A model generated the notes under the pieces. It had not been told where the DNA came from, searched no databases, and saw only the letters and a list, made by a program, of their open reading frames with translations. This document shows positions 1-30,027 of a DNA stretch of 64,000 bases, one piece after another. This DNA is from an uncultured Anaerolineae bacterium (GTDB taxonomy: Bacteria > Chloroflexota > Anaerolineae > JACIWP01), in NCBI GenBank assembly GCA_938049385.1, contig CALIBQ010000038.1:33974-97973 (forward strand). The letters run 5' to 3'. The position numbers were made by a program, and so were the translations under genes. Position 1 is the stretch's first letter. The number at the start of each line of letters is the position of its first letter.

Positions 1-78
1 ATAGCCCTCCTTCTCCAGCACCATGCGGGTGATTTCCAGGAAATCGGGGTCGTCGTCCACTACCAGCACTTTGCACAT
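1..78 (-). CDS. response regulator receiver-domain protein, N-terminal fragment (gene continues beyond window start)
   Basis: minus-strand reading from ATG at 76-78 gives MCKVLVVDDDPDFLEITRMVLEKEGY, a canonical CheY-like receiver N-terminus with DDD acidic pocket; absent from the ORF track because it runs off the window edge. Confidence 0.55.
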   Translation of the reverse strand, partial: MCKVLVVDDDPDFLEITRMVLEKEGY

Positions 79-163
79 GGTTATCCCTCCTTGCGATGTG
101 GTGGCACGAGCAGATATCGATGAACGCTTCTCTCGCGGCGTTACATGGGCGCTAGGGAAGCAG

Positions 164-1009
164 TCAGCCGCGTTTAGCCAGGAGCCGGCGCACCTCTGCC
201 ACCAGCCGGTCGGGCGCAATGGGCTTCGCCAGGAAGGCGTCGGCCGCCGGCGAGGCATCCATCGGGAACATGCCGGCATAGGGCGAATCGGCGATGGAGG
301 AGACCATCAGCACCGGGATGCCGGCGAGCGATTGGTCGGCCCGCATCTGCTCAGCCGCATGCAGACCGTCCCAGATGTCCCGCATCATCACATCGAGCAG
401 TACCAGGTCGGGCCGGCTGAGGTGCATCAATGCCAGTGCCTGTTCTCCATGGGCCGCAGAGCTGACCTGATAGCCGGCATGTGTCAGGACAGTGCGGCAG
501 AATTCGACGAAATCCGGATCATCGTCCACCACCAGGATGTGGCCGGGCCGCGCCGACGGAAGCCGCCAGTCTGCCGACGAGCGGATGATCTCCAGCACCT
601 GTAGGATGTTGGTGCGCAGGATGCCGCTCTGCTGGCCCAGGGTGTGCAGGAGGAAATAGGTCAGGGCGCGTGGGCTGTCGAAGGCGGCTTCGATGAGCAG
701 GTTCCATTCGCCGGCGACGAAATAGAGGGCGATGACGGCGCTTTCGTGCTGGAGTGTGCCGGCGATGCGCGGCACTGCCCCCGGCTCGCACTGCACGCCG
801 ATGAAGACATGATGCGGGTAGCCAACGCGCGGCAGGTCCAGCGCCACCGCCAGCCGCATCCAGCCCTCATCCAGCAGGCGTTCCAGACGCTTGCGGATGG
901 TGCCTTCGGCGACCCCCAGCCGGCGGGCGATTTCCACATTGGGAATGCGCCCGTTCTCCTGCAGGATGCGGATGATATCCCGGTCCAGCTCGTCCAGTTG
1001 TGCCGACAT
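164..1009 (-). CDS. Lrp/AsnC-family transcriptional regulator fused to a C-terminal response-regulator receiver domain
   Basis: ORF 164..1051(-); N-terminal AsnC-type HTH (DRDIIRILQENGRIPNVEIARRLGVAEGTIRKRLERL) plus RAM-like domain; C-terminal receiver with DDD pocket, LLDVMM acceptor Asp, LMVSS and LAKP motifs; start placed at ATG 1009 (MSAQLDELD) with GGAG RBS 8 nt upstream; ATG 1051 also possible. Confidence 0.8.
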   Translation of the reverse strand: MSAQLDELDRDIIRILQENGRIPNVEIARRLGVAEGTIRKRLERLLDEGWMRLAVALDLPRVGYPHHVFIGVQCEPGAVPRIAGTLQHESAVIALYFVAGEWNLLIEAAFDSPRALTYFLLHTLGQQSGILRTNILQVLEIIRSSADWRLPSARPGHILVVDDDPDFVEFCRTVLTHAGYQVSSAAHGEQALALMHLSRPDLVLLDVMMRDIWDGLHAAEQMRADQSLAGIPVLMVSSIADSPYAGMFPMDASPAADAFLAKPIAPDRLVAEVRRLLAKRG

Positions 1010-1085
1010 GGGGTGTGCTCCATATCTGTGCGCCTGACTATATGATACCATATTTTGCGAAAAATGTCAATAGCAAAATAAAAAT

Positions 1086-1100
1086 TTACGAAATTCGTAA
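1086..1100. promoter_or_regulatory. perfect 7-1-7 palindrome TTACGAA-A-TTCGTAA; candidate Lrp-type operator in divergent lrp/aspS intergenic region
   Basis: read directly; sits in a locally AT-rich stretch (1049-1110) 77 bp upstream of the Lrp-REC start. Confidence 0.3.
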
Positions 1101-1174
1101 GAACATAGGCTACTGCGCCTGCGCATGTTCGCCCGCGGCAGTATGGCTCGTCCAACACCCTCGTACCGCCCGAT

Positions 1175-1202
1175 TTGAAGAATTGGCCCTCTGCGTTATA
1201 AT
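1175..1202 (+). promoter_or_regulatory. sigma70-type promoter candidate for aspS (TTGAAG-N16-TATAAT)
   Basis: -35 TTGAAG 1175-1180, -10 TATAAT 1197-1202, ~35 nt upstream of aspS start. Confidence 0.45.
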
Positions 1203-1237
1203 AAGAGGAAAACTTGTGCACGAAGGAACACTCGCCT

Positions 1238-3031
1238 ATGATGAAGACCCATACTTGCGGGGAACTGCGGCGTTCGCATGTGGGACAGACGGTGACCCTC
1301 GCCGGCTGGGTGCACCGCCGGCGCGACCACGGCGGGCTGATCTTCATTGACTTGCGCGACCGCTGGGGCATCACCCAGGTGGTCTTCGACTCCTCCGCAT
1401 ACCCGGAGGCCCATCAGGTAGCCGCCCGCTTCCGCAACGAGTACGTGGTCCAGATCACAGGCCAGGTGCGCGCCCGGCCGGCCGGCCTGGAAAACCCCAA
1501 AATGGCTACTGGCGATATCGAGGTCTTGGGCCAGCACGCCGTCATCTTGAACGAGGCCAAAACCCCGCCCTTCTACATCAACGAGGATGTGGATGTGGAC
1601 GAAACCCTGCGCCTGCGCTACCGCTACCTGGACCTGCGCCGGGAACGCATGCAGAGGAACATGGTCCTGCGCCATCGCGTCGTCAAGTTCATGCGCGATT
1701 ATCTGGACGCTCGCGGCTTCATCGAGATCGAAACGCCCATCCTCATCAAGAGCACGCCGGAGGGAGCGCGCGACTACCTGGTGCCCAGCCGGCTCCATAA
1801 GGGGCGCTTCTATGCCCTGCCCCAGTCGCCCCAGCAGTTGAAGCAGTTGCTGATGGTTGCCGGCATCGAACGCTATTTCCAAATTGCCCGCTGTTTCCGC
1901 GACGAGGACCAGCGCGCTGACCGTCAGCCGGAATTCACTCAGCTCGACCTGGAAATGTCCTTCGTGGACCAGGAGGATATCCTCCAGCTTATCGAGGGCC
2001 TGTTCATCAGCCTGGTGGAGGCCATGCGCCGGCCCTTTGAGGAAGGGGGCATGGGGCTGACCAAGACCATCCAGCAAATCCCCTTCCCGCGCCTTTCCTA
2101 CGAAGAGGCCATGAACCGCTACGGCACGGACAAACCTGACCTGCGCTTCGGCATGGAAATCATTGACTTCAGCGACGTGGTGGCCGGCTCTTCGTTCGGC
2201 GTCTTTGCCAATGCCTTGGCCGCCGGCGGGAAGGTCAAGGGGCTGTGCGTGCCGGGTGCCGGCAGTTACACTCGCAAGCAGTTGGATGAGCTGTCGCTGT
2301 TGGCACAACGCCTGGGTGCCAAGGGGCTGGTCTGGATGATCCCGGACGCGGAAGGGGTGCGCTCGCCGGCCGCCAAGTTCCTGACGCCCGAGGAAATCCG
2401 CGGCATTATCCAGCGCGCCGGCGCCGGCCCCGAGGACCTTATCCTACTGGCTGCCGATAAGCCCGAGGTCGTCGCCGAAGTGCTGGGCGAACTGCGGGTG
2501 GAGATGGGCCGGCGGCTGGGCCTGCTGGACGAGAATGTGCTGGCCTTTTGCTGGATCGTGGACTTCCCCCTTCTGGAGTGGAGCGAGGAGGAACAGCGCT
2601 ATACCGCCAAGCATCATCCCTTCACCTCGGCGCGCGATGAGGATTGGGACCTGCTGGAGACCAACCCCGCCGCAGTGCGTGCCAAGGCATACGACATCGT
2701 GCTCAACGGCTATGAGGTAGGCGGCGGGAGCATCCGAATCCACCGCCGCGACCTGCAGAACCGGCTGTTCCGCGTCCTCGGCCTCTCCGAAGAGGAAATT
2801 CAGGCGCAGTTCGGCCATATGCTGGAGGCCTTCGAGTACGGCGCCCCGCCGCACGGCGGCATTGCCCCGGGCATTGACCGCATCGTCATGCTCTTGGCCG
2901 GCGAACCCAATATCCGCGAGGTCATCGCCTTCCCCAAGACGCAGTCAGCGGTGGACCTGATGACCGGCGCCCCCTCGCCGGTATCCCCTCGACAGCTTCA
3001 GGAACTGCATATCCGCATCGTCGAAGATTAA
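1238..3031 (+). CDS. aspS: aspartate--tRNA ligase
   Basis: ORF 1214..3031; N-terminal OB anticodon-binding domain ([29 protein letters not shown]), class II aaRS motifs ([18 protein letters not shown]; [11 protein letters not shown]; [14 protein letters not shown]); ATG 1238 follows GAAGGA RBS. Confidence 0.95.
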
Positions 3032-4973: not shown

Positions 4974-5094
4974 CTCGTTCCCTCGTTCAATTGTCCTAGC
5001 CGCTGAGGCCAGGTGAATGCCGGCGCCGGCCGGCGGCCGCATGACACAAAAAAGATACCCCAGGGCGTTGGGAGTCTGCCCTGGGGCTGTTCGA

Positions 5095-5183
5095 TGGTGC
5101 CGAAGGAGGGATTTGAACCCACACGGGCGTTATGCCCACTGCGCCCTGAACGCAGCGTGTCTGCCAGTTCCACCACTTCGGCA
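5095..5183 (-). tRNA. tRNA-Leu (anticodon CAG), long variable arm, CCA encoded
   Basis: minus-strand RNA GCCGAAGTGGTGGAACTGGCAGACACGCTGCGTTCAGGGCGCAGTGGGCATAACGCCCGTGTGGGTTCAAATCCCTCCTTCGGCACCA; anticodon stem CTGCG/CGCAG with loop TTCAGGG; T-stem has one U-U mismatch. Confidence 0.8.
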
Positions 5184-5209
5184 TCCCAGCTTCCATTGGA
5201 AGCACCTAT

Positions 5210-5238
5210 ATTATATCGGGTTCGCCCCAATTTGTCAA
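5210..5238 (-). promoter_or_regulatory. sigma70-type promoter for tRNA-Leu (TTGACA-N17-TATAAT on minus strand)
   Basis: reverse complement of 5210-5238 reads TTGACAaattggggcgaacccgaTATAAT; overlaps the 3' end of the GNAT gene. Confidence 0.5.
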
Positions 5239-5239
5239 A

Positions 5240-5782
5240 TCAAGCCGGAAGGCCTTTGCGGAATTCCTCCTCCAGGATGCCCATCTGATGGATATCATGG
5301 TACTGCCCGTCGCGGTACAGGGCCTGCCGGCGCGTGCCCTCCAGGCGGAAGCCGGCTTTCTCATAACAGCGCCTGGCCCGCGTGTTGAAATCGTATACCT
5401 CCAGCTCCACCCGATGCAAATTCAGCTCCAGAAAGGCGAAGCGCAGGAGCGTGCGCACCGCGTCGGTGCCAAGGCCCCGGTTCCAGAAGCGCTTCTCACC
5501 GATGGAGATGCCCAGTACTCCACAGCGGTTCTTCCAGTCCACCCGATGCAGGCCGATGGTGCCGATGGGCAGCCATTCTCCCCCTTCTTCGGTCTCGATG
5601 ACAAACATCATGTCGTCGCGCGCTTTGAGATGTTCCTCGAACCACTGCTCTTCCCGGGCCTGGGACATGGGGAGGTACATCAGCAGGTACTGGCGTACCT
5701 CTGGATCGTTGAACCAGCGCACGAAGGTGGGGATATCGCGGCGCTCCGGGGAGCGCAGGCGGATGCGTGCACCAAAGAGCAT
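5240..5782 (-). CDS. GNAT family N-acetyltransferase (RimJ/RimL-like)
   Basis: ORF 5240..5863; start at MLFGARIRLR (ATG 5782, GGAGAA RBS); acetyl-CoA binding motif region RGLGTDAVRTLLRFAF and conserved FNTRARRCYEKAGF. Confidence 0.8.
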   Translation of the reverse strand: MLFGARIRLRSPERRDIPTFVRWFNDPEVRQYLLMYLPMSQAREEQWFEEHLKARDDMMFVIETEEGGEWLPIGTIGLHRVDWKNRCGVLGISIGEKRFWNRGLGTDAVRTLLRFAFLELNLHRVELEVYDFNTRARRCYEKAGFRLEGTRRQALYRDGQYHDIHQMGILEEEFRKGLPA

Positions 5783-5792
5783 GCGCGTTCTC

Positions 5793-7634
5793 CTAATGTC
5801 TGAGGTAGAAGGGCACGTCCGTGATGATGCGGAAGCGTCCCTGGCTCGTATCCCGGCGGGCATAGTTCAAGGCCCACTTGAGCACCAGGGCGGTCTGGTT
5901 GTGCAGGAAGAAGTGCCACCAGCGCGCCGGCACGAACTCCGGCATGACGATAGTCACGTAATGGCCGTCCTCATCAATGAAACTGTTCACGTAATCCATC
6001 AACGGCTCCACCACAGAGCGGTACGGCGATGGCAGGACCTCCAGCGGGATATCGGGCAGGTAATGCTTCCAGCGCTCCAAAAGCTTGGCCGTTTCCTCCG
6101 GATTCACATCCACGGTGACCACGTGCACGTCCTCTCCCAATGCCTTGGCATAGTACACGGCCTTGACGACGCCGCGATGCAGGCCGGCCACCGGCACGAC
6201 GACGGTATGTTTCTTGACCGGGGTGGGCCAGCGCAGGGAGAGAGAAAGCTGTTCCGCCACCTCTTCGTAATGATGGTGAATGGCTTTGAACATCATCACC
6301 AACAGGGGGATGAGGGCCAGCACGATCCACGCGCCGTGGATGAACTTGGTGACCGCCATCATTACCGCCACGATGAATGTGGCAACCGCTCCCAGGGCGT
6401 TAAAGATGATGGAAGTTTGCCAGCCGGGGGTGCGCCGGCGCAGCCAGTACCGCACCATGCCGGTCTGGTTGAGGGTGAAGGATGTGAACACGCCCACCGC
6501 GTACAGCGGGATAAGGGCATGGGTGCTGGCATGGAAGAGGATGACCAGCAGGGATGAAAACAGCCCCAAGAGGATGATGCCGTTGGCATAGACCAGCCGG
6601 TCTCCCACGTTGGCGAGCTGGCGCGGCAGGAAGCGATCGCGCGCCATCCACATGGAAAGGCGCGGGAAATCGGCGTAGCTGGTGTTGGCCGCCAGCACCA
6701 GGATGAGCATGGTCGCCGCCTGAATCAGGTAATAGAAGATACTTCGGTCGAAGATGGTGCGGGCGATTTGCGAGACAACGGTCTCGCCTTCGCGCGGGAC
6801 GATCCCAAGCTGGTGCGCCAGGAAAGTGATGCCCAGGAACATGGTCACCAGAATGGTGACCATCCACAGCAGGGTTTTGCCGGCGTTCTCCCCTTCAGGC
6901 GGCTTGAAAACCGGCACCCCGTCGCTGATGGCCTCCACACCGGTCAGGGCGGTACAGCCGGAGGTGAAGGCGCGCAGAAGCAGGAACAAGGTGAGCGGTT
7001 GGGCGGCCTGTACCGCAGTGGCGGTAGCGGCCTCCGCCGGCTGGATGGAGCCGGTGAGCACACGCGCTATGCCGACGCCGATGAGGGTCAGAATGCAGGC
7101 GATAAAAAAGTAGGTAGGCACGGCGAAGACGCGCGCCGACTCCCGCACGCCGCGCAGGTTCATGATGGTGATGAAGGCGATGGCAACAACCGCCAGCTCC
7201 ACCCGCCAGGGATAGAGCGGGGGAAAGGCGGAAGTGATGGCGGCAATGCCGGCGGAGATGCTCACCGCCACCGTCAGGATATAGTCGGTCAGCAAAGCCC
7301 CGCCGGCGACCAGGCTGGGAAGCGTGCCCAGGTTCTCGCGCGATACGATGTACGAGCCGGCGCCTTTCGGGTAGGCGTGCACTGTCTGGTAGTAGGACAT
7401 GCCGACGATGACCAGCAGTGCGGCGATGGCCAGCGCGATGGGCCATGACAGGTTCAGCGCGGCACTGCCGGCGAGGATCAGCACCATCAGGATTTCCTCC
7501 GTCGCATAGGCGACCGAGGAAAGCGCATCCGATGACAAGACAGCTAACGCCTGGACCTTGCCCAGGCGCTCATGGGACATGCGGTACGTCGGCAGCGGCA
7601 TGCCGATTAATATTCTCTTGATGTAGGACAGCAT
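5793..7634 (-). CDS. APC-superfamily amino acid permease with C-terminal cytoplasmic domain
   Basis: 613 aa, ~12 predicted TM helices (e.g. ILAGSAALNLSWPIALAIAALLVIVGMSYY), conserved APC N-terminal segment LSSDALSSVAYATEEIL; soluble C-terminal ~150 aa domain. Confidence 0.8.
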   Translation of the reverse strand: MLSYIKRILIGMPLPTYRMSHERLGKVQALAVLSSDALSSVAYATEEILMVLILAGSAALNLSWPIALAIAALLVIVGMSYYQTVHAYPKGAGSYIVSRENLGTLPSLVAGGALLTDYILTVAVSISAGIAAITSAFPPLYPWRVELAVVAIAFITIMNLRGVRESARVFAVPTYFFIACILTLIGVGIARVLTGSIQPAEAATATAVQAAQPLTLFLLLRAFTSGCTALTGVEAISDGVPVFKPPEGENAGKTLLWMVTILVTMFLGITFLAHQLGIVPREGETVVSQIARTIFDRSIFYYLIQAATMLILVLAANTSYADFPRLSMWMARDRFLPRQLANVGDRLVYANGIILLGLFSSLLVILFHASTHALIPLYAVGVFTSFTLNQTGMVRYWLRRRTPGWQTSIIFNALGAVATFIVAVMMAVTKFIHGAWIVLALIPLLVMMFKAIHHHYEEVAEQLSLSLRWPTPVKKHTVVVPVAGLHRGVVKAVYYAKALGEDVHVVTVDVNPEETAKLLERWKHYLPDIPLEVLPSPYRSVVEPLMDYVNSFIDEDGHYVTIVMPEFVPARWWHFFLHNQTALVLKWALNYARRDTSQGRFRIITDVPFYLRH

Positions 7635-14378: not shown

Positions 14379-17300
14379 TTAACGGGATGGCCGGCCGGCT
14401 GGCCGCGGCGGGCCGGCGGGATGGCTGGCCGGCGGCGATGGCTCCCGGGCCGGCGGAACAGCCCCACTAGGACGCAGGAACGTGGTCTCTTCGAGCACAT
14501 CGGCCAGCCGGCGGTCCTTGGGGATGGCCAAGTAGAAGATACTGCCAACGCCGACCTCGCTCTCGACCCACACCTGCCCGCCGTGCTGTTCCGCCACTTC
14601 CTTGACCAGGGCGAGGCCCAGGCCGGTGCCGTGGATATGCAGGGTCTCGCGCCGGCGCACGCGGTAGAATTTCTCGAAGATGCGCCGGCGGTCGGCCTGC
14701 GAAATGCCGATGCCTGAGTCAGCTATCTTGACCACCACCGCGGAGGCCAGCTCCTGCACGGAGACCTTCACCCAGCCGGGCGCCATGGTGTACTTGATGG
14801 CGTTATCAATAAGGTTGCGGATGGCGCGCTTGAGCCGGTCCGGGTCGCCGATGACCATCGACACGTCGGCCGGCAGTTCCACCAGGAAGCTCAGCCCTTT
14901 GCCCTCGGCGTAGGTGCGCATGTTCTCGGCGACCTCGCTCACCAGGTTGACGAGCTGGACCGGCGTCATGGTCATGCCAATCTTATTGGAGACCTCCGCC
15001 AGTTCGGTCAGCTCGTTGATGAGCTGGGTCAGGTCGTCACTGCCCTTCAGGATTTTCTCGATGTATTCGAGCTGGCGCTCGCTCACCGCTTCATCGCGCA
15101 GCATGGAGGCATAGCCGCGCACGAAGGTGAGCGGGCTTTTCATGTCGTGGGCGATGGTGTGAACGAAATCGGTCTGCAGTTCGTCCAGGCGCTTCCATTC
15201 GGTGATGTCGCGCATGACCAGCACCCATCCCTGCGGGGCGGTTTTCCCGCTCAACCGGATGGGGGAGGCGCTGACGTACAGCCGGCGGCCGTCCCGCTCC
15301 AGCTCGATAGTGGTGGGGCCGCGCCCACGCGCGATGTCGGAAAGCATGCGGAAAAGGGAATCGTCACTGATGAGTTCGGGCAGGGGAGTGCCGACACGCT
15401 CCTGGAAGTTGAACTCCAGCAGTTCTTCGGCGGCCGGATTCGCCAACTGCAGACGTCCCTCGGCATCCAGCACCAGGATGGTATCCGGTGTGCTGTTCAG
15501 GATGGCGGCCAGCCGACTGCGCTCGCTCTCCACCGCATGGTAGATGCGGTTGTTCTCAATCATGATGCCGCCCAGACTGGCCAGGGCGGACAGGAAGTGC
15601 ACATCCGAGGACGAGAAGGGGCGTGCCGCCGGCCATAATGCCCACAGGGCGCCCAGGTTGCGGCCCTCGCGAAGCATGGGGAGCATGACGAAGGCGGCCA
15701 CATTGGCGCGCTCCATCAAGGCAAGGGGCACCTCGCCGTGTTCCTCGTGCACATCGCTGACGATGACTTGCCGCGCCTTACGCCAGGTCTGGCCGGCCAT
15801 CTGCTCCAGGTACAATTCCAGGTCCGCCGGCAGGTTGCCCTCGCCTTCCATAAAGCGCTTCCAGATGGCGCCGTCGGTGCCGATCAGGTACATGCCGGCG
15901 GTGTGCGCTTCCATGCCCCGGGTGACGGCGCGGAGCAGGATGCCCACGGTGTGCTCCAGATTGGCGCGGGCGGAGACGTTCTGGCTGACCTCGACCAGGC
16001 GGGCCAGTTCCTCGACGCCGGCGCCCAGCCCGATGGTCATGCGTTTGATGGCGCGCACGAGCTGGCCGATTTCATCGCCGCGCCGGTCAGCTTCGGGCAG
16101 GGGGGTGTTCAGCTCGCCGGCGGCGATGCGCGCGGCGGCCTGGGCGATTTGTCCCAGTGGATGCAGTTGGGTCTGCAATTCCCAGACCATGCCGGCGGCT
16201 AGGATGGCGAACAGACCGATCAGCAAAAAGAGCAGAGGGCGTGCCAGCCGGCCGGCGGACTGCATGATCGTGCCTTGGTCGGTCTCCATCACAAGGTGCC
16301 ATCCGAGACGGTCCATCCGCCGCCAGTAGGTGAGCTGGGGCTGACCACCAGCACCGTTCTCCGCGTATGCCTGGCCGGCCCGCACGGTAAAGCGGCGCAG
16401 AGGTTCGGCATTGGCTACCCAGGTAGAAATGTTAGGAGGAGCGCCGGCGGAAAAGAGGATACTGCCGCGATCGTCAATGAGGTACACGCGGTCGGCAGTA
16501 TCGTTCCCCTGACGCATGGACAACGCCGCCTCCACGGCCGGCTGTCGGAGGGGAAGCATCCGTCCGATGAGCACGCCGCGCACCTGCCGGTCGCGTGGGT
16601 CCAGGAGTGGGGTCGCCATGGAAATCGCCGGCTGGCCGTCGGCCCAGCGGTAGGTACGGCTCAGCGCGGTATGTCCCTGTGCGATGGCGTCCGCAAGGGC
16701 AGCGAACTCTGCTTCGTTCAACGGCGGTGTGCCAGCGCTCTCGCCCAGGGCACGCACCGCTACGATGTTGGCGGTCTGGTCCAGCAGGATGAGCGTGTGG
16801 AAAGGTGCATTCGCCAGTTCCACTGTCTCCAGCGCGCCCGCCCACTGGTTGGTGGGGATGTCGGCGAAGCGGCCGGCGGCAGTAATAGAGTCCAGGCTTT
16901 CTAGGCCGGCCTGCGCCGTGCCCTCCAGCGCGCCGGCGAGATCGCCGGCGGCGTTCTCCATCTGCCCCAGGGCCTGCTCGAATGCGATGCGGGTGCTGGC
17001 GGCGTAAAGAGCGATGATGGAGACGATCGCAGTGATTGTAAGAAGCGGCATCAGCCGGGCGCGCAGGCTGGCGGCCAGGGTGCGTTGGGGGATGATTTCC
17101 CCTGCTGACCCGAGACCCTGGCGCAGTGCGGGGGAAAGGGCGAGCAGGAGCTGTGCCAAGCCTCCCAGTACGAGCGCGCCGACACATACGGGGATGATCT
17201 GGCCGGCTGGCGGAACCGCCGGCGCCAGCAGTCCTGCCCATAGGGCGGGATTCACCAGGTAGGCGTACAGCGGAAGCGGCCAGAGGAGCACGCTGACCAG

Positions 17301-28704: not shown

Positions 28705-30027
28705 TCACAGCTTGACGATTTTCGCTCGCGGCGCCCGCACCCCGCGCAGGGCGTTGCGCGTGTCCACGATAAGGCCGGCGTTCTGCGCCACCCACTCCCA
28801 ATCGTAAGCGGAGTGGTCCGTGACAATGACGACGCAGTCCGCCTGCTGAAGCGCCTGCGCGGTCAAATCCACGGACCGCATGACCGCATCATCCAACTGG
28901 AGTTGGGGCACATGCGGGTCATGGTACGAGAGGTTCGCGCCGCGCAGGAGCAGTTCGCGCATAATGTCCAGCGCCGGCGATTCGCGGATATCGCCCACAT
29001 CCTTTTTATAGGCCGCGCCCAGTATCAACACCGAGGAGCCGCGCACCGGCTTGCGGGCATCGTTCAGCGCGGCGATAACCTTGTCCACCACGTAGTGCGG
29101 CATATGGGAGTTGATCTCGCCGGCCAGTTCGATGAAGCGCGCCGTGTAGTTCAGGGTGCGCAGTTTCCAGGCCAGATAATGGGGGTCCACCGGGATGCAG
29201 TGCCCGCCGAGGCCCGGCCCCGGCAGGAAGCGCATGAAGCCAAAGGGCTTGGTGGCGGCGGCGTCAATCACCTCCCATACGTCCAGCCCCAGTCGGTCGC
29301 ACATGATGGCGATCTCATTGACCAGGGCGATGTTGACGGCGCGAAAGGTGTTTTCCAGCAGTTTGGTCATCTCGGCGGCCGCCGGCGAGCTGACCGGCAC
29401 AATGGTCTCGATGATGGAACCGTAGAGCGCGCTGGCTACCTCCAGGCAGGCCGGCGTCATCCCCCCGATGACCTTGGGCGTGTTGCGGATGGTGTAGACC
29501 GGGTTGCCAGGGTCCACCCGTTCCGGCGAGAAGGCCAAGAAAATGTCCTCGCCGATGCGCAATCCGTTGGCCGCCAGGCGCGGGGCGATGATTTCCTCGG
29601 TGGAGCCGGGGTAGGTAGTGGATTCCAGGACGATGAGCTGGCCGCGCCGGCTCCGCTGGGAGATAGCGTCCGCGGCCTGCAGGATGTACGAGATGTCCGG
29701 GTCGCGGCTCTTGCCCAGCGGTGTGGGCACGCAGATGGAAATGGTGTCGAGTTGGGGAATCATGTCGTAAGAGCTGGTGGCCATGAGCCGGCGCCCCTCC
29801 ACCAACAGCCGCAGTCGCTCCGCCGGCACGTCCCCAATGTAGCTCTGGCCGGCGTTGATGGCCGATACCCGATGCGGGGCCAGATCAATGCCCAACACGG
29901 TAAAGCCGGCCTCGGCAAATTCCACCGCCAGTGGCAGGCCTACATATCCAAGGCCCACCACCCCCACGCGGGCTTCCTTCCGCCGGATGCGCTCCAGGAG
30001 AGCTTCCTTCACAGACGGAATAGACAT
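28705..30027 (-). CDS. nucleotide-sugar 6-dehydrogenase (UDP-N-acetyl-D-glucosamine/mannosamine dehydrogenase, WbpA/WecC-like)
   Basis: 440 aa; NAD-binding GVVGLGYVGLPLA; catalytic Cys region PGPGLGGHCIPVDPHYL; UDP-glucose/GDP-mannose dehydrogenase family C-terminal domain. Confidence 0.9.
   Translation of the reverse strand: MSIPSVKEALLERIRRKEARVGVVGLGYVGLPLAVEFAEAGFTVLGIDLAPHRVSAINAGQSYIGDVPAERLRLLVEGRRLMATSSYDMIPQLDTISICVPTPLGKSRDPDISYILQAADAISQRSRRGQLIVLESTTYPGSTEEIIAPRLAANGLRIGEDIFLAFSPERVDPGNPVYTIRNTPKVIGGMTPACLEVASALYGSIIETIVPVSSPAAAEMTKLLENTFRAVNIALVNEIAIMCDRLGLDVWEVIDAAATKPFGFMRFLPGPGLGGHCIPVDPHYLAWKLRTLNYTARFIELAGEINSHMPHYVVDKVIAALNDARKPVRGSSVLILGAAYKKDVGDIRESPALDIMRELLLRGANLSYHDPHVPQLQLDDAVMRSVDLTAQALQQADCVVIVTDHSAYDWEWVAQNAGLIVDTRNALRGVRAPRAKIVKL

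Follow-up and report, generated by a model that had tools for sequence, protein, structure and literature searches.

An Lrp/AsnC-type regulator fused to a receiver domain in Anaerolineae, with a conserved two-component operon and predicted phased operators

The fusion gene and its domains

We analyzed a 64-kb stretch of DNA from an uncultured Anaerolineae bacterium (contig CALIBQ010000038.1; the full stretch is referred to below as the window), the left end of which encodes a protein that joins a DNA-binding module of the Lrp/AsnC family to a phospho-receiver (REC) domain. This fusion gene, Lrp-REC, occupies positions 164..1009 of the minus strand and translates as a single unbroken open reading frame (ORF) of 281 codons. 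It is followed by the beginning of a gene for a stand-alone receiver. The features of this region are:

78..1, minus strand: stand-alone receiver gene, first 26 codons, cut by the window edge; encodes MCKVLVVDDDPDFLEITRMVLEKEGY
79..163, minus strand: spacer of 85 nt separating the fusion gene from the receiver gene that follows, with a GGAGG Shine-Dalgarno sequence
164..1009, minus strand: Lrp/AsnC-REC fusion gene, 281 aa, comprising a helix-turn-helix (HTH), a RAM domain, a conserved linker and a receiver
191..538, minus strand: receiver, aa 158-273 (PF00072 Response_reg, E 2.9e-22, 79 bits against a cut-off of 30)
392..394, minus strand: codon GAT of Asp206, the predicted phospho-acceptor, aligned to CheY D57
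539..589, minus strand: linker, aa 141-157, with W148 invariant and P151 nearly so; predicted local distance difference test score (pLDDT) 79-87
590..802, minus strand: RAM domain (AsnC_trans_reg; ligand binding and oligomerization), aa 70-140 (PF01037, E 2.8e-8, 34 bits against a cut-off of 25)
875..997, minus strand: AsnC-type HTH, aa 5-45 (PF13404, E 3.9e-16, 59 bits against a cut-off of 27)

All three Pfam models, HTH_AsnC-type, AsnC_trans_reg and Response_reg, thus exceed their gathering cut-offs on the same protein, in agreement with an earlier annotation of this DNA made without database searches (hereafter, the sequence-only reading), which had described a complete AsnC/Lrp HTH and RAM module joined to a receiver. 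The same annotation called the receiver canonical, with its acceptor Asp, Ser and Lys in place, and both the alignment with Escherichia coli CheY and the conservation of these residues in 121 sequences (see below) bear this out. In the CheY alignment, D162 and D163 correspond to D12 and D13, D206 to D57, and S237 to T87; on the switch side, F259 corresponds to Y106 and K262 to K109. Judged by these residues, the fusion receiver is complete for both phosphoryl chemistry and the conformational switch.

NCBIfam returned partial, sub-threshold matches only: the Lrp-type models (ChrS, AsnC, LrpA and LysM) span aa 3-140, and the response-regulator models (PleD, MtrA, PhoB, NarL and similar) span aa 155-280, far under their cut-offs. 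Thus, no curated family covers the whole protein. Translation likely starts at the ATG at position 1009 and not at the upstream ATG at 1051, because the corresponding residue is the first one in the homologues and an ATG at 1051 would lie upstream of the predicted -10 box (1042-1047). The effector-loop signature of the RAM domain, (T99)-G100-E101-x-(D103), is kept in the family; the window protein reads A-G-E-W-N at these positions. A siroheme decarboxylase function of the AhbA/B-NirDL type was considered and rejected: PF22451 scored only 16.5 bits against a cut-off of 27, the tandem Lrp-Lrp proteins have another architecture, and the DNA-contact residues and the operator are conserved here.

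Predicted structure of the two halves

AlphaFold2 modeling of the monomer with the 121-sequence alignment gave a mean pLDDT of 88.4 and a predicted template-modeling score (pTM) of 0.57. The modeled RAM domain has the beta-alpha-beta-beta-alpha-beta topology. In Foldseek searches of the PDB, the N-terminal half superposed on entire Lrp or feast/famine regulatory protein (FFRP) chains, with a root-mean-square deviation of 1.3-2.7 A and template-modeling scores of 0.81-0.93 normalized to the target; the matches included PH0140 (7fby/9w4w), FL11 (2cyy/2e1c), NMB0573, AsnC (2cg4) and Lrp (2gqq). The C-terminal half superposed on receiver domains. No chain in the PDB spans both halves, either by fold or by sequence. 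The N-terminal half is therefore AsnC-like by sequence (Pfam) as well as by fold (Foldseek), and the protein as a whole belongs, on both kinds of evidence, to the Lrp/AsnC family and to the receiver superfamily. It does not fall into the classical OmpR, NarL or NtrC classes: the receiver is C-terminal, and HTH_AsnC and RAM are the only outputs that Pfam detected.

The modeled receiver lacks a regular alpha4 helix. Residues ~240-257 (SIADSPYAGMFPMDASPAAD), which occupy this region, have pLDDT values of 51-73, and the motif found there, SSIxxSxYAxxFPTDE, is conserved across the family and in the neighboring stand-alone receivers. In the stand-alone receivers of four of the homologous loci that we collected (L001, L002, L004 and L086), a conserved SSIxDSxxAxxFPTDE replaces the regular alpha4.

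A compact family in Anaerolineae

A protein search of 5.8 billion sequences yielded 881 matches, and the best 120 are all proteins of 274-303 aa with HTH_AsnC, AsnC_trans_reg and Response_reg. The homologues came from NCBI, JGI, ENA and Logan assemblies. Those with names are annotated as “response regulator [Anaerolineae / Chloroflexota bacterium]” or carry a generic Lrp/AsnC label, and the organism-named ones are all Anaerolineae or Chloroflexota, the taxonomic breadth being judged here from the names attached to the records. An exact look-up did not find the window protein's own sequence in the protein collection; its closest relatives are 92% and 83% identical, and the others are at 44-52%.

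In the alignment of 121 members, the receiver residues D162, D163, D164, D206, K262 and P263 and the linker residue W148 are invariant, and S237, S238 and F259 are at least 90% conserved. In the HTH, N24, E35 and R39 do not vary, and conservation of T37 is at least 90%.

When 1.84 billion representatives, each standing for one 50%-identity cluster, were searched with a profile, only about five clusters of full-length, single-stretch proteins (P0121-P0125) were recovered, beneath which came fragments, followed by tandem Lrp-Lrp and multi-receiver proteins. Seeding with P0125 brought in a divergent clade of 26 further members with unchanged architecture. Among species-representative genomes, the full-length fusion loci are all from Anaerolineae metagenome-assembled genomes; this contig scan was dominated by the generic LVVDDDPD receiver pattern, and about 10 of 80 loci kept hold a full-length fusion. 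The family is compact yet many-membered and apparently lineage-restricted. The sequence-only reading had called the architecture rare, which holds in that the family is narrow (about five clusters at 50% identity) and fails in that it is not sporadic, with many members in Anaerolineae metagenomes. Nor is the fusion the product of a frameshift between two genes, as the single-ORF architecture is kept in more than 120 homologues.

Full-text literature searches found no paper on an Lrp-receiver fusion, and censuses of response-regulator output domains may mention one in passing. Lrp-REC is an uncharacterized class of response regulators, defined by its Lrp output, its conserved operon and its predicted operator geometry; databases already label some members “response regulator.”

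In relatives, the operon encodes additional receivers, an ACT protein and a kinase

The spacer between the fusion gene and the downstream receiver gene contains no terminator-like hairpin, and zero terminator-like sites were found in window positions 1..1400. Given this spacer with its GGAGG sequence and the lack of such a hairpin, co-transcription of the two genes is likely. A related locus, L001, encodes an 83%-identical orthologue and is collinear with window positions 1..1837 at 81.6% nucleotide identity, the divergent aspS gene included. Past the point that corresponds to the left edge of the window, L001 encodes a 129-aa receiver, a 125-aa receiver, a 157-aa ACT_7/ACT_9 protein and a histidine kinase with a multi-pass membrane N-terminus, which is cut by the contig end. 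The start encoded at 78..1 equals that of the 129-aa receiver of L001, a protein with Response_reg as its only domain, so the sequence-only reading was right to place a second stand-alone receiver directly downstream of the fusion. Its remark that no kinase is adjacent is correct within the window and misses that the operon runs off the left edge: a kinase is encoded in L001 and in eight other loci.

The module in which Lrp-REC comes first, at the head of the operon, and is followed by one to three stand-alone receivers, an ACT protein and a kinase of 6TM_PilS-HisKA-HATPase_c architecture was found in L002/L003, L004/L005, L007, L009, L012, L021 and L086. The ACT protein and the kinase are encoded 1.5-5 kb downstream of the fusion in L001, L002, L004, L007, L009, L012, L021 and L086, and a kinase is also encoded at the fusion cluster of L089. 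In L008, the ACT gene is present, with only a partial kinase match, located on the opposite strand. The cluster kinases carry an HELRAP H-box.

The ACT protein resembles the regulatory ACT-ACT part at the C-terminus of aspartate kinases (E 1e-29), far under the whole-enzyme cut-offs. It is 157-161 aa long, and its gene always lies immediately upstream of the 6TM kinase gene. The positions of the ACT_7/ACT_9 genes are:

L001, 2529-3002
L002, 13971-14447
L004, 10905-11378
L086, 12049-12534

In a matrix of paralogues, identities among the cluster receivers, whether fused or stand-alone, were 37-66%, against 22-30% with CheY, and the fused receiver is hence one of the operon's own set of paralogues. 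The clusters showed no Hpt protein, which makes branched wiring from one kinase to several receivers likelier than a His-Asp-His-Asp relay. The “phosphorelay” control that the sequence-only reading ascribed to the fusion is unproven.

The kinase and ACT proteins of related loci, together with their hydrogenase, Hdr, NuoEF and formate dehydrogenase proteins, were compared with the window by tblastn, and the only match was an unrelated histidine kinase at ~14520-15194. This histidine-kinase-like coding region (14520-15194, minus strand) shares ~31% identity with the cluster kinases in their catalytic cores and is not adjacent to the operon.

A conserved promoter with phased boxes

Upstream of the fusion gene, the following elements were predicted:

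1042..1070, minus strand: sigma-70-type operon promoter, with a -35 hexamer TTGACA (1070..1065), a 17-nt spacer and a TG-extended -10 hexamer TATCAT (1047..1042)
1055..1069, minus strand: box M, a degenerate putative operator, TGACATTTTTCGCAA, overlapping the -35 hexamer and the spacer
1086-1100, palindromic on both strands: box U, a perfect 15-mer palindrome, TTACGAAATTCGTAA, centered at 1093, ~59 bp upstream of the predicted transcription start

The predicted promoter is a strong one, fitting the consensus at 11 of 12 positions, and its layout is kept upstream of 15 orthologues. The center of box M, at 1062, lies exactly 31 bp from that of box U. Only the right half-site of box M, TTCGC, is kept in the window; full palindromes occupy its position in L002, L006, L007 and L021. 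In the orthologues, boxes occur at three positions: U upstream, M on the -35 hexamer and spacer, and D just past the -10 hexamer, over the expected start. Box D is present over the transcription start in most relatives. The window promoter thus has a perfect box U, a half-intact box M and no box D.

Promoters of orthologues with 40-50% protein identity and different neighbors share the -35 hexamer, the extended -10 hexamer and in-register [AG]CGA-WWW-TCG[TC] boxes. When half-sites were counted in 16 promoters at offsets of -50 to +60 around box M, counts of at least three were reached only at -32/-31, 0 and +31 bp (3, 14, 20 and 12 at -32, -31, 0 and +31 bp, respectively, the count at offset 0 being partly forced by the anchoring pattern). 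The combined signature of a -35 hexamer, a half-site and a -10 hexamer occurs 19 times in the 1.24 Mb of fetched loci, and 15 of these occurrences lie directly upstream of Lrp-REC genes. Among the remaining four, two head related operons (L088 and L011) and two, in unrelated phyla, look like chance.

In both L088 (23-70) and L011 (313-360), the boxed promoter, consisting of TTGAC, a half-site and TGnTATAAT, heads an operon that starts with a stand-alone receiver. The Lrp-REC gene of L088 lies 8 kb downstream of this promoter in the same orientation and has no boxed promoter of its own.

Within the window, the core ACGAWWWTCG occurs three times in 64 kb against 0.45 expected, and none of 100 shuffles reached three. 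Allowing up to two mismatches, the 13-mer of box U is matched nowhere else in the window. The other core match, at 28715-28724, is in the 3' end of a coding region and lacks a -10 box, and we judged it to be a chance occurrence. The surrounding sequence (28712-28725, plus strand; CTTGACGATTTTCGC) is box-M-like, with a -35-like hexamer and a full ACGA-TTT-TCGC, and falls at the 3' end of a minus-strand ORF (28705..30027).

The divergent aspS gene (1238-3031, plus strand) has a promoter-like site of its own at 1175-1202 on the plus strand (TTGAAG, a 16-nt spacer and TATAAT), ~80 bp from the palindrome. Co-regulation of aspS is not a conserved feature, because the aspS-Lrp-REC arrangement is common only to L001 and the window.

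The recognition residues predict the operator

Archaeal FFRPs bind sites of the form abcdeWWWedcba, as determined by systematic ligand evolution through exponential enrichment (SELEX; Yokoyama et al. 2009, PMC2715240). The SELEX optimum of the Thermoplasma protein TvFL3 is TACGA[AAT/ATT]TCGTA (PMC2715240). The 13-mer core of box U at 1087-1099 (TACGAWWWTCGTA) is identical, letter for letter, to this optimum (TACGAAATTCGTA).

Bases are read in FFRPs by residues 24, 34, 35, 36, 37 and 39 in FL11 numbering (PMC2715240). Under the published code, G at position c is read by Arg39 and C at d by Glu35; T at a is read jointly by residue 34 and a Thr or Ala at 37; an A at b accompanies Gly or Ala at 36, with Ser36 moving this base toward G or A; and positions e and d are read by Asn24 (PMC2715240). 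TvFL3 itself has Asn24, Ser34, Glu35, Gly36 and Arg39, with position 37 given as Thr or Ala (PMC2715240). FL11 numbering coincides with the numbering of the window protein, the contact residues of which are N24, A34, E35, G36, T37 and R39. N24, E35, G36 and R39 are held in common with TvFL3, amounting to at least four of the six base-contacting residues, and Ala34 is also present in FL11, in which this residue makes contact with the T of position a. With these contact residues, the published code predicts TACGA-WWW-TCGTA for the window protein, and this sequence is present at its own promoter.

The only orthologue with Ser36, that of L004, has G at b in all boxes (GCGA/TCGC), as the code would have it; covariation of residue 36 (G, A or S) with operator base b (A or G) is only suggestive across the family. 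Box U is predicted to be a high-affinity operator for one Lrp-REC dimer, and, from the match between protein and DNA, Lrp-REC very probably binds the palindrome in its own promoter. The sequence-only reading had proposed this palindrome as a plausible auto-operator; conserved in register in the orthologues and concordant with the FFRP code, it is now a predicted operator.

Metabolic genes in and around the operon of relatives

In several relatives, the cluster contains or adjoins genes of hydrogen, formate and electron metabolism. NuoE and NuoF, both above the NCBIfam cut-offs, are encoded inside the operon in L002 (11679-13398) and L086 (9921-11633), and hypF, hypC, hypD and a gene with an AIRS domain (hypE-like) adjoin the cluster of L002. 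L088 (1595-6999) has an FdhA-, FdhB-, FdhC- and FdhE-like set between the boxed promoter and the Lrp-REC gene, and, in L011 (903-4879), the boxed promoter and the receiver are followed by a [NiFe]-hydrogenase operon. L087 (6217-14011) and L010 encode DsrMK/HdrD-like proteins, GcvH, lipoate ligase and MvhD (FlpD). HdrABC-like and NuoEF-like proteins, HycI and cytochrome/NrfD genes were found in L089 (8628-15032), and HdrD, HdrA, MvhD, a [NiFe]-hydrogenase, HycI and a FocA-REC protein in L090 (3064-10624). This set of neighbors points to control of the metabolism of H2, formate and reducing equivalents rather than to amino-acid feast/famine regulation, and the label “amino-acid responsive,” which the sequence-only reading gave to the fusion, is unproven.

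At the end of the hydrogenase operon in L011, a gene (4982-5887, plus strand) encodes a 301-aa protein with a C-terminal REC of the same subfamily, 34% identical to the receiver of the fusion. Its N-terminal part of ~170 aa has no Pfam match and is not detectably Lrp; the protein may thus have another kind of output attached in the same orientation.

The tblastn search described above found no hydrogenase, Hdr, NuoEF or formate dehydrogenase genes within the 64-kb window. On the right, the neighbors of the fusion gene are of the housekeeping kind, with aspS followed by genes for a LysM-YkuD transpeptidase, DivIC, tRNA-Leu, a GNAT acetyltransferase and an amino-acid permease. The tRNA gene lies as follows:

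5095-5182, minus strand: tRNA-Leu (anticodon CAG), between the DivIC-like and GNAT acetyltransferase genes

In the lineage of the window, the operon appears to be a bare signaling module with targets elsewhere.

A proposed phosphorylation-controlled Lrp output and its alternatives

Taken together, the domain composition, the operon and the promoter argue that the DNA-binding output of this multi-receiver two-component system is probably a phosphorylation-controlled Lrp-type regulator that autoregulates its operon via phased operators. The single steps by which this could work are each held much less firmly than the overall picture. The kinase of the operon would phosphorylate Asp206, and this could alter the association of Lrp dimers, for example through receiver-receiver contacts between neighboring dimers; because the receiver hangs on the RAM domain, which mediates dimer-dimer assembly in Lrp, phosphorylation might be expected to change higher-order assembly. 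The altered assembly would in turn affect how cooperatively boxes U, M and D are occupied and how they are wrapped. Occupation of box U alone (centered at about -59) might activate, and filling of M (on the -35 hexamer) and D (over the start site) might repress, yielding a self-limiting switch. The phospho-switch would act on the operon promoter and on targets elsewhere.

The remaining components can be assigned candidate roles. The free receivers could compete for phosphoryl groups or partner the fused receiver, and the ACT-ACT protein is a candidate cytoplasmic ligand sensor or accessory of the kinase. Since the family keeps the effector loop T-G-E-x-D, the RAM pocket could provide a second, direct small-molecule input. 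In the relatives, the system would control the hydrogenase, Hdr-like, formate dehydrogenase or NuoEF genes that lie in or next to the operon.

Several observations weigh against the proposal of a phosphorylation-controlled, autoregulating Lrp output. The kinase, the ACT gene and box D are all missing from the window and are known from relatives, the nearest of which is 83% identical at the amino acid level. No second target site was accepted in the 64-kb window. Some proteins with Ala36 or Gly36 also show TCGC half-sites, so that the covariation between residue 36 and base b is not clean. Each half of the structural model is confident, and the orientation of the Lrp half relative to REC is uncertain, as the pTM indicates. 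The usual alpha4-beta5-alpha5 signaling face, and hence the transmission of phosphorylation, may be unconventional in this receiver. Finally, phosphotransfer, oligomeric state, DNA binding and ligand binding are all inferred.

Among the alternatives, the one that fares best, and which we nevertheless consider unlikely, is that the fusion is a signal integrator or phosphate sink: binding of a RAM ligand or of DNA would tune the draw of phosphate, the single-domain receivers would be the true outputs, and DNA binding would be only autoregulatory. The presence in the operon of one to three stand-alone receivers of the same subfamily fits this scheme, as do the absence, in the window and in most loci, of an operator outside the promoter of the gene itself and the boxed promoter that drives a receiver gene first in L011 and L088. 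However, the strong conservation of the recognition residues N24, E35, T37 and R39 and of the three phased operators befits a bona fide transcription factor, and, in several genomes, the hydrogenase, formate dehydrogenase and NuoEF genes are inside the boxed operon, so that autoregulation there already amounts to regulation of metabolic genes.

It is less likely still that the receiver is a phosphorylation-independent structural module that adds an oligomerization surface to an ordinary ligand-controlled Lrp. Atypical, phosphorylation-independent receivers do occur in other families, and both the irregular alpha4 region (pLDDT 51-73 for aa 240-257) and a domain order opposite to that of classical response regulators could be read this way. 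Against this reading, the DD pocket, D206, S237, F259 and K262 are invariant or nearly so in 121 sequences of ~45-50% identity, and the operon also encodes a conserved histidine kinase with its H-box intact.

The palindrome could, in principle, be a chance feature or the site of another regulator, in which case Lrp-REC would not be autoregulated. The AT-rich intergenic region favors W-rich palindromes and is shared with the divergent aspS promoter. We regard this explanation as highly improbable, given that the 13-mer is unique in 64 kb, that the core is over-represented to an extent matched by none of the 100 shuffles, that the site is in register in orthologous promoters with no other neighbors in common and that it equals the sequence predicted from the recognition residues of the protein under the published FFRP code. 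An assembly or frameshift artifact joining separate Lrp and receiver genes can be dismissed, considering the more than 120 independent homologues with a single ORF of 275-300 aa, the divergent clade of 26 and the invariant linker Trp.

A more far-reaching proposal extends the phosphorylation-controlled Lrp output to a new response-regulator class in which phosphorylation, instead of or besides an amino-acid ligand, gates Lrp assembly on three operators spaced by 31 bp, the single receivers and the ACT sensor tune the response, and the system serves as a dedicated regulator of hydrogenase, Hdr-like, formate dehydrogenase and NADH-module genes in Anaerolineae. We put this forward tentatively, as a possibility that we hold with less than even confidence.

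Comparison with known regulators

The N-terminal 145 aa of the fusion comprise the full HTH and RAM fold of Lrp/AsnC regulators such as FL11/PH1519, PH0140, TvFL3, Ss-LrpB, E. coli Lrp and AsnC. Autoregulation is typical of Lrp proteins, as are sites with centers spaced by two or three helical turns and the wrapping of DNA by cooperative dimers or octamers, and Ss-LrpB alternates between positive and negative autoregulation on three boxes of its own promoter (PMC2995911). Like these autoregulated proteins, the fusion has boxes three helical turns (31 bp) apart in its own promoter. Unlike the known Lrp/AsnC proteins, it adds a 125-aa receiver after RAM, its gene sits in a two-component operon, and its control would be by phosphorylation, instead of or besides amino acids.

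With the classical response regulators (OmpR/PhoB, NarL/FixJ, NtrC and LytTR), Lrp-REC shares a canonical receiver, a kinase in the operons of relatives and a DNA-binding output. It differs from them in that the output is Lrp/AsnC rather than a winged helix, GerE, Fis or LytTR domain and the receiver is C-terminal. The expected DNA-bound unit differs as well: a higher-order Lrp assembly on three phased sites, not a dimer on a single site.

By circuit logic, the nearest systems are archaeal, with an N-terminal HTH or winged HTH (wHTH) and a C-terminal receiver. In the FilI-FilR1/FilR2 system of Methanosaeta harundinacea, FilR1 is a wHTH-DUF1724-REC protein, FilR2 is a stand-alone receiver, and FilR1 works together with FilR2 and one kinase to regulate energy-metabolism genes (PMC5847659). 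In the LtrK-LtrR system of Methanococcoides burtonii, LtrR is an HTH-REC regulator (PMC5847659). The circuit of FilR1 corresponds to Lrp-REC with its single receivers and kinase, a likeness drawn from the circuit with no homology claimed beyond the receiver. Unlike FilR1, the fusion has HTH_AsnC-RAM in place of wHTH-DUF1724 and is bacterial (Chloroflexota), not archaeal. As a pairing of a receiver with a RAM-like domain, the thaumarchaeal REC-NitrOD1 comes nearest (PMC5847659); it differs in having no AsnC HTH and an N-terminal receiver, is confined to Nitrosopumilus and is not a DNA-binding Lrp.

Implications

Two textbook modes of bacterial gene control meet in this protein: metabolite-controlled DNA wrapping, exemplified by Lrp/AsnC, and phosphorylation-controlled dimerization, exemplified by response regulators. 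A natural, conserved Lrp-REC fusion would show a phospho-switch wired to an octamer-type, DNA-wrapping regulator. The system also lends itself unusually well to testing, since sequence yields predictions for the operator, the geometry of its three boxes, the phospho-acceptor and the kinase.

Anaerolineae abound in digesters, in sediments and in the subsurface, and, to our knowledge, almost none of their regulators have been characterized. That the circuit recurs next to genes for [NiFe]-hydrogenase, Hdr/Mvh-like proteins, formate dehydrogenase and NuoEF suggests a role for it in controlling how H2, formate and reducing power are handled; if so, Lrp-REC would be useful as a marker and as an engineering handle. 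The fusion overturns no current concept, and it connects these two modes of control cleanly and in an experimentally accessible way, in a lineage that has been little studied and is environmentally important.

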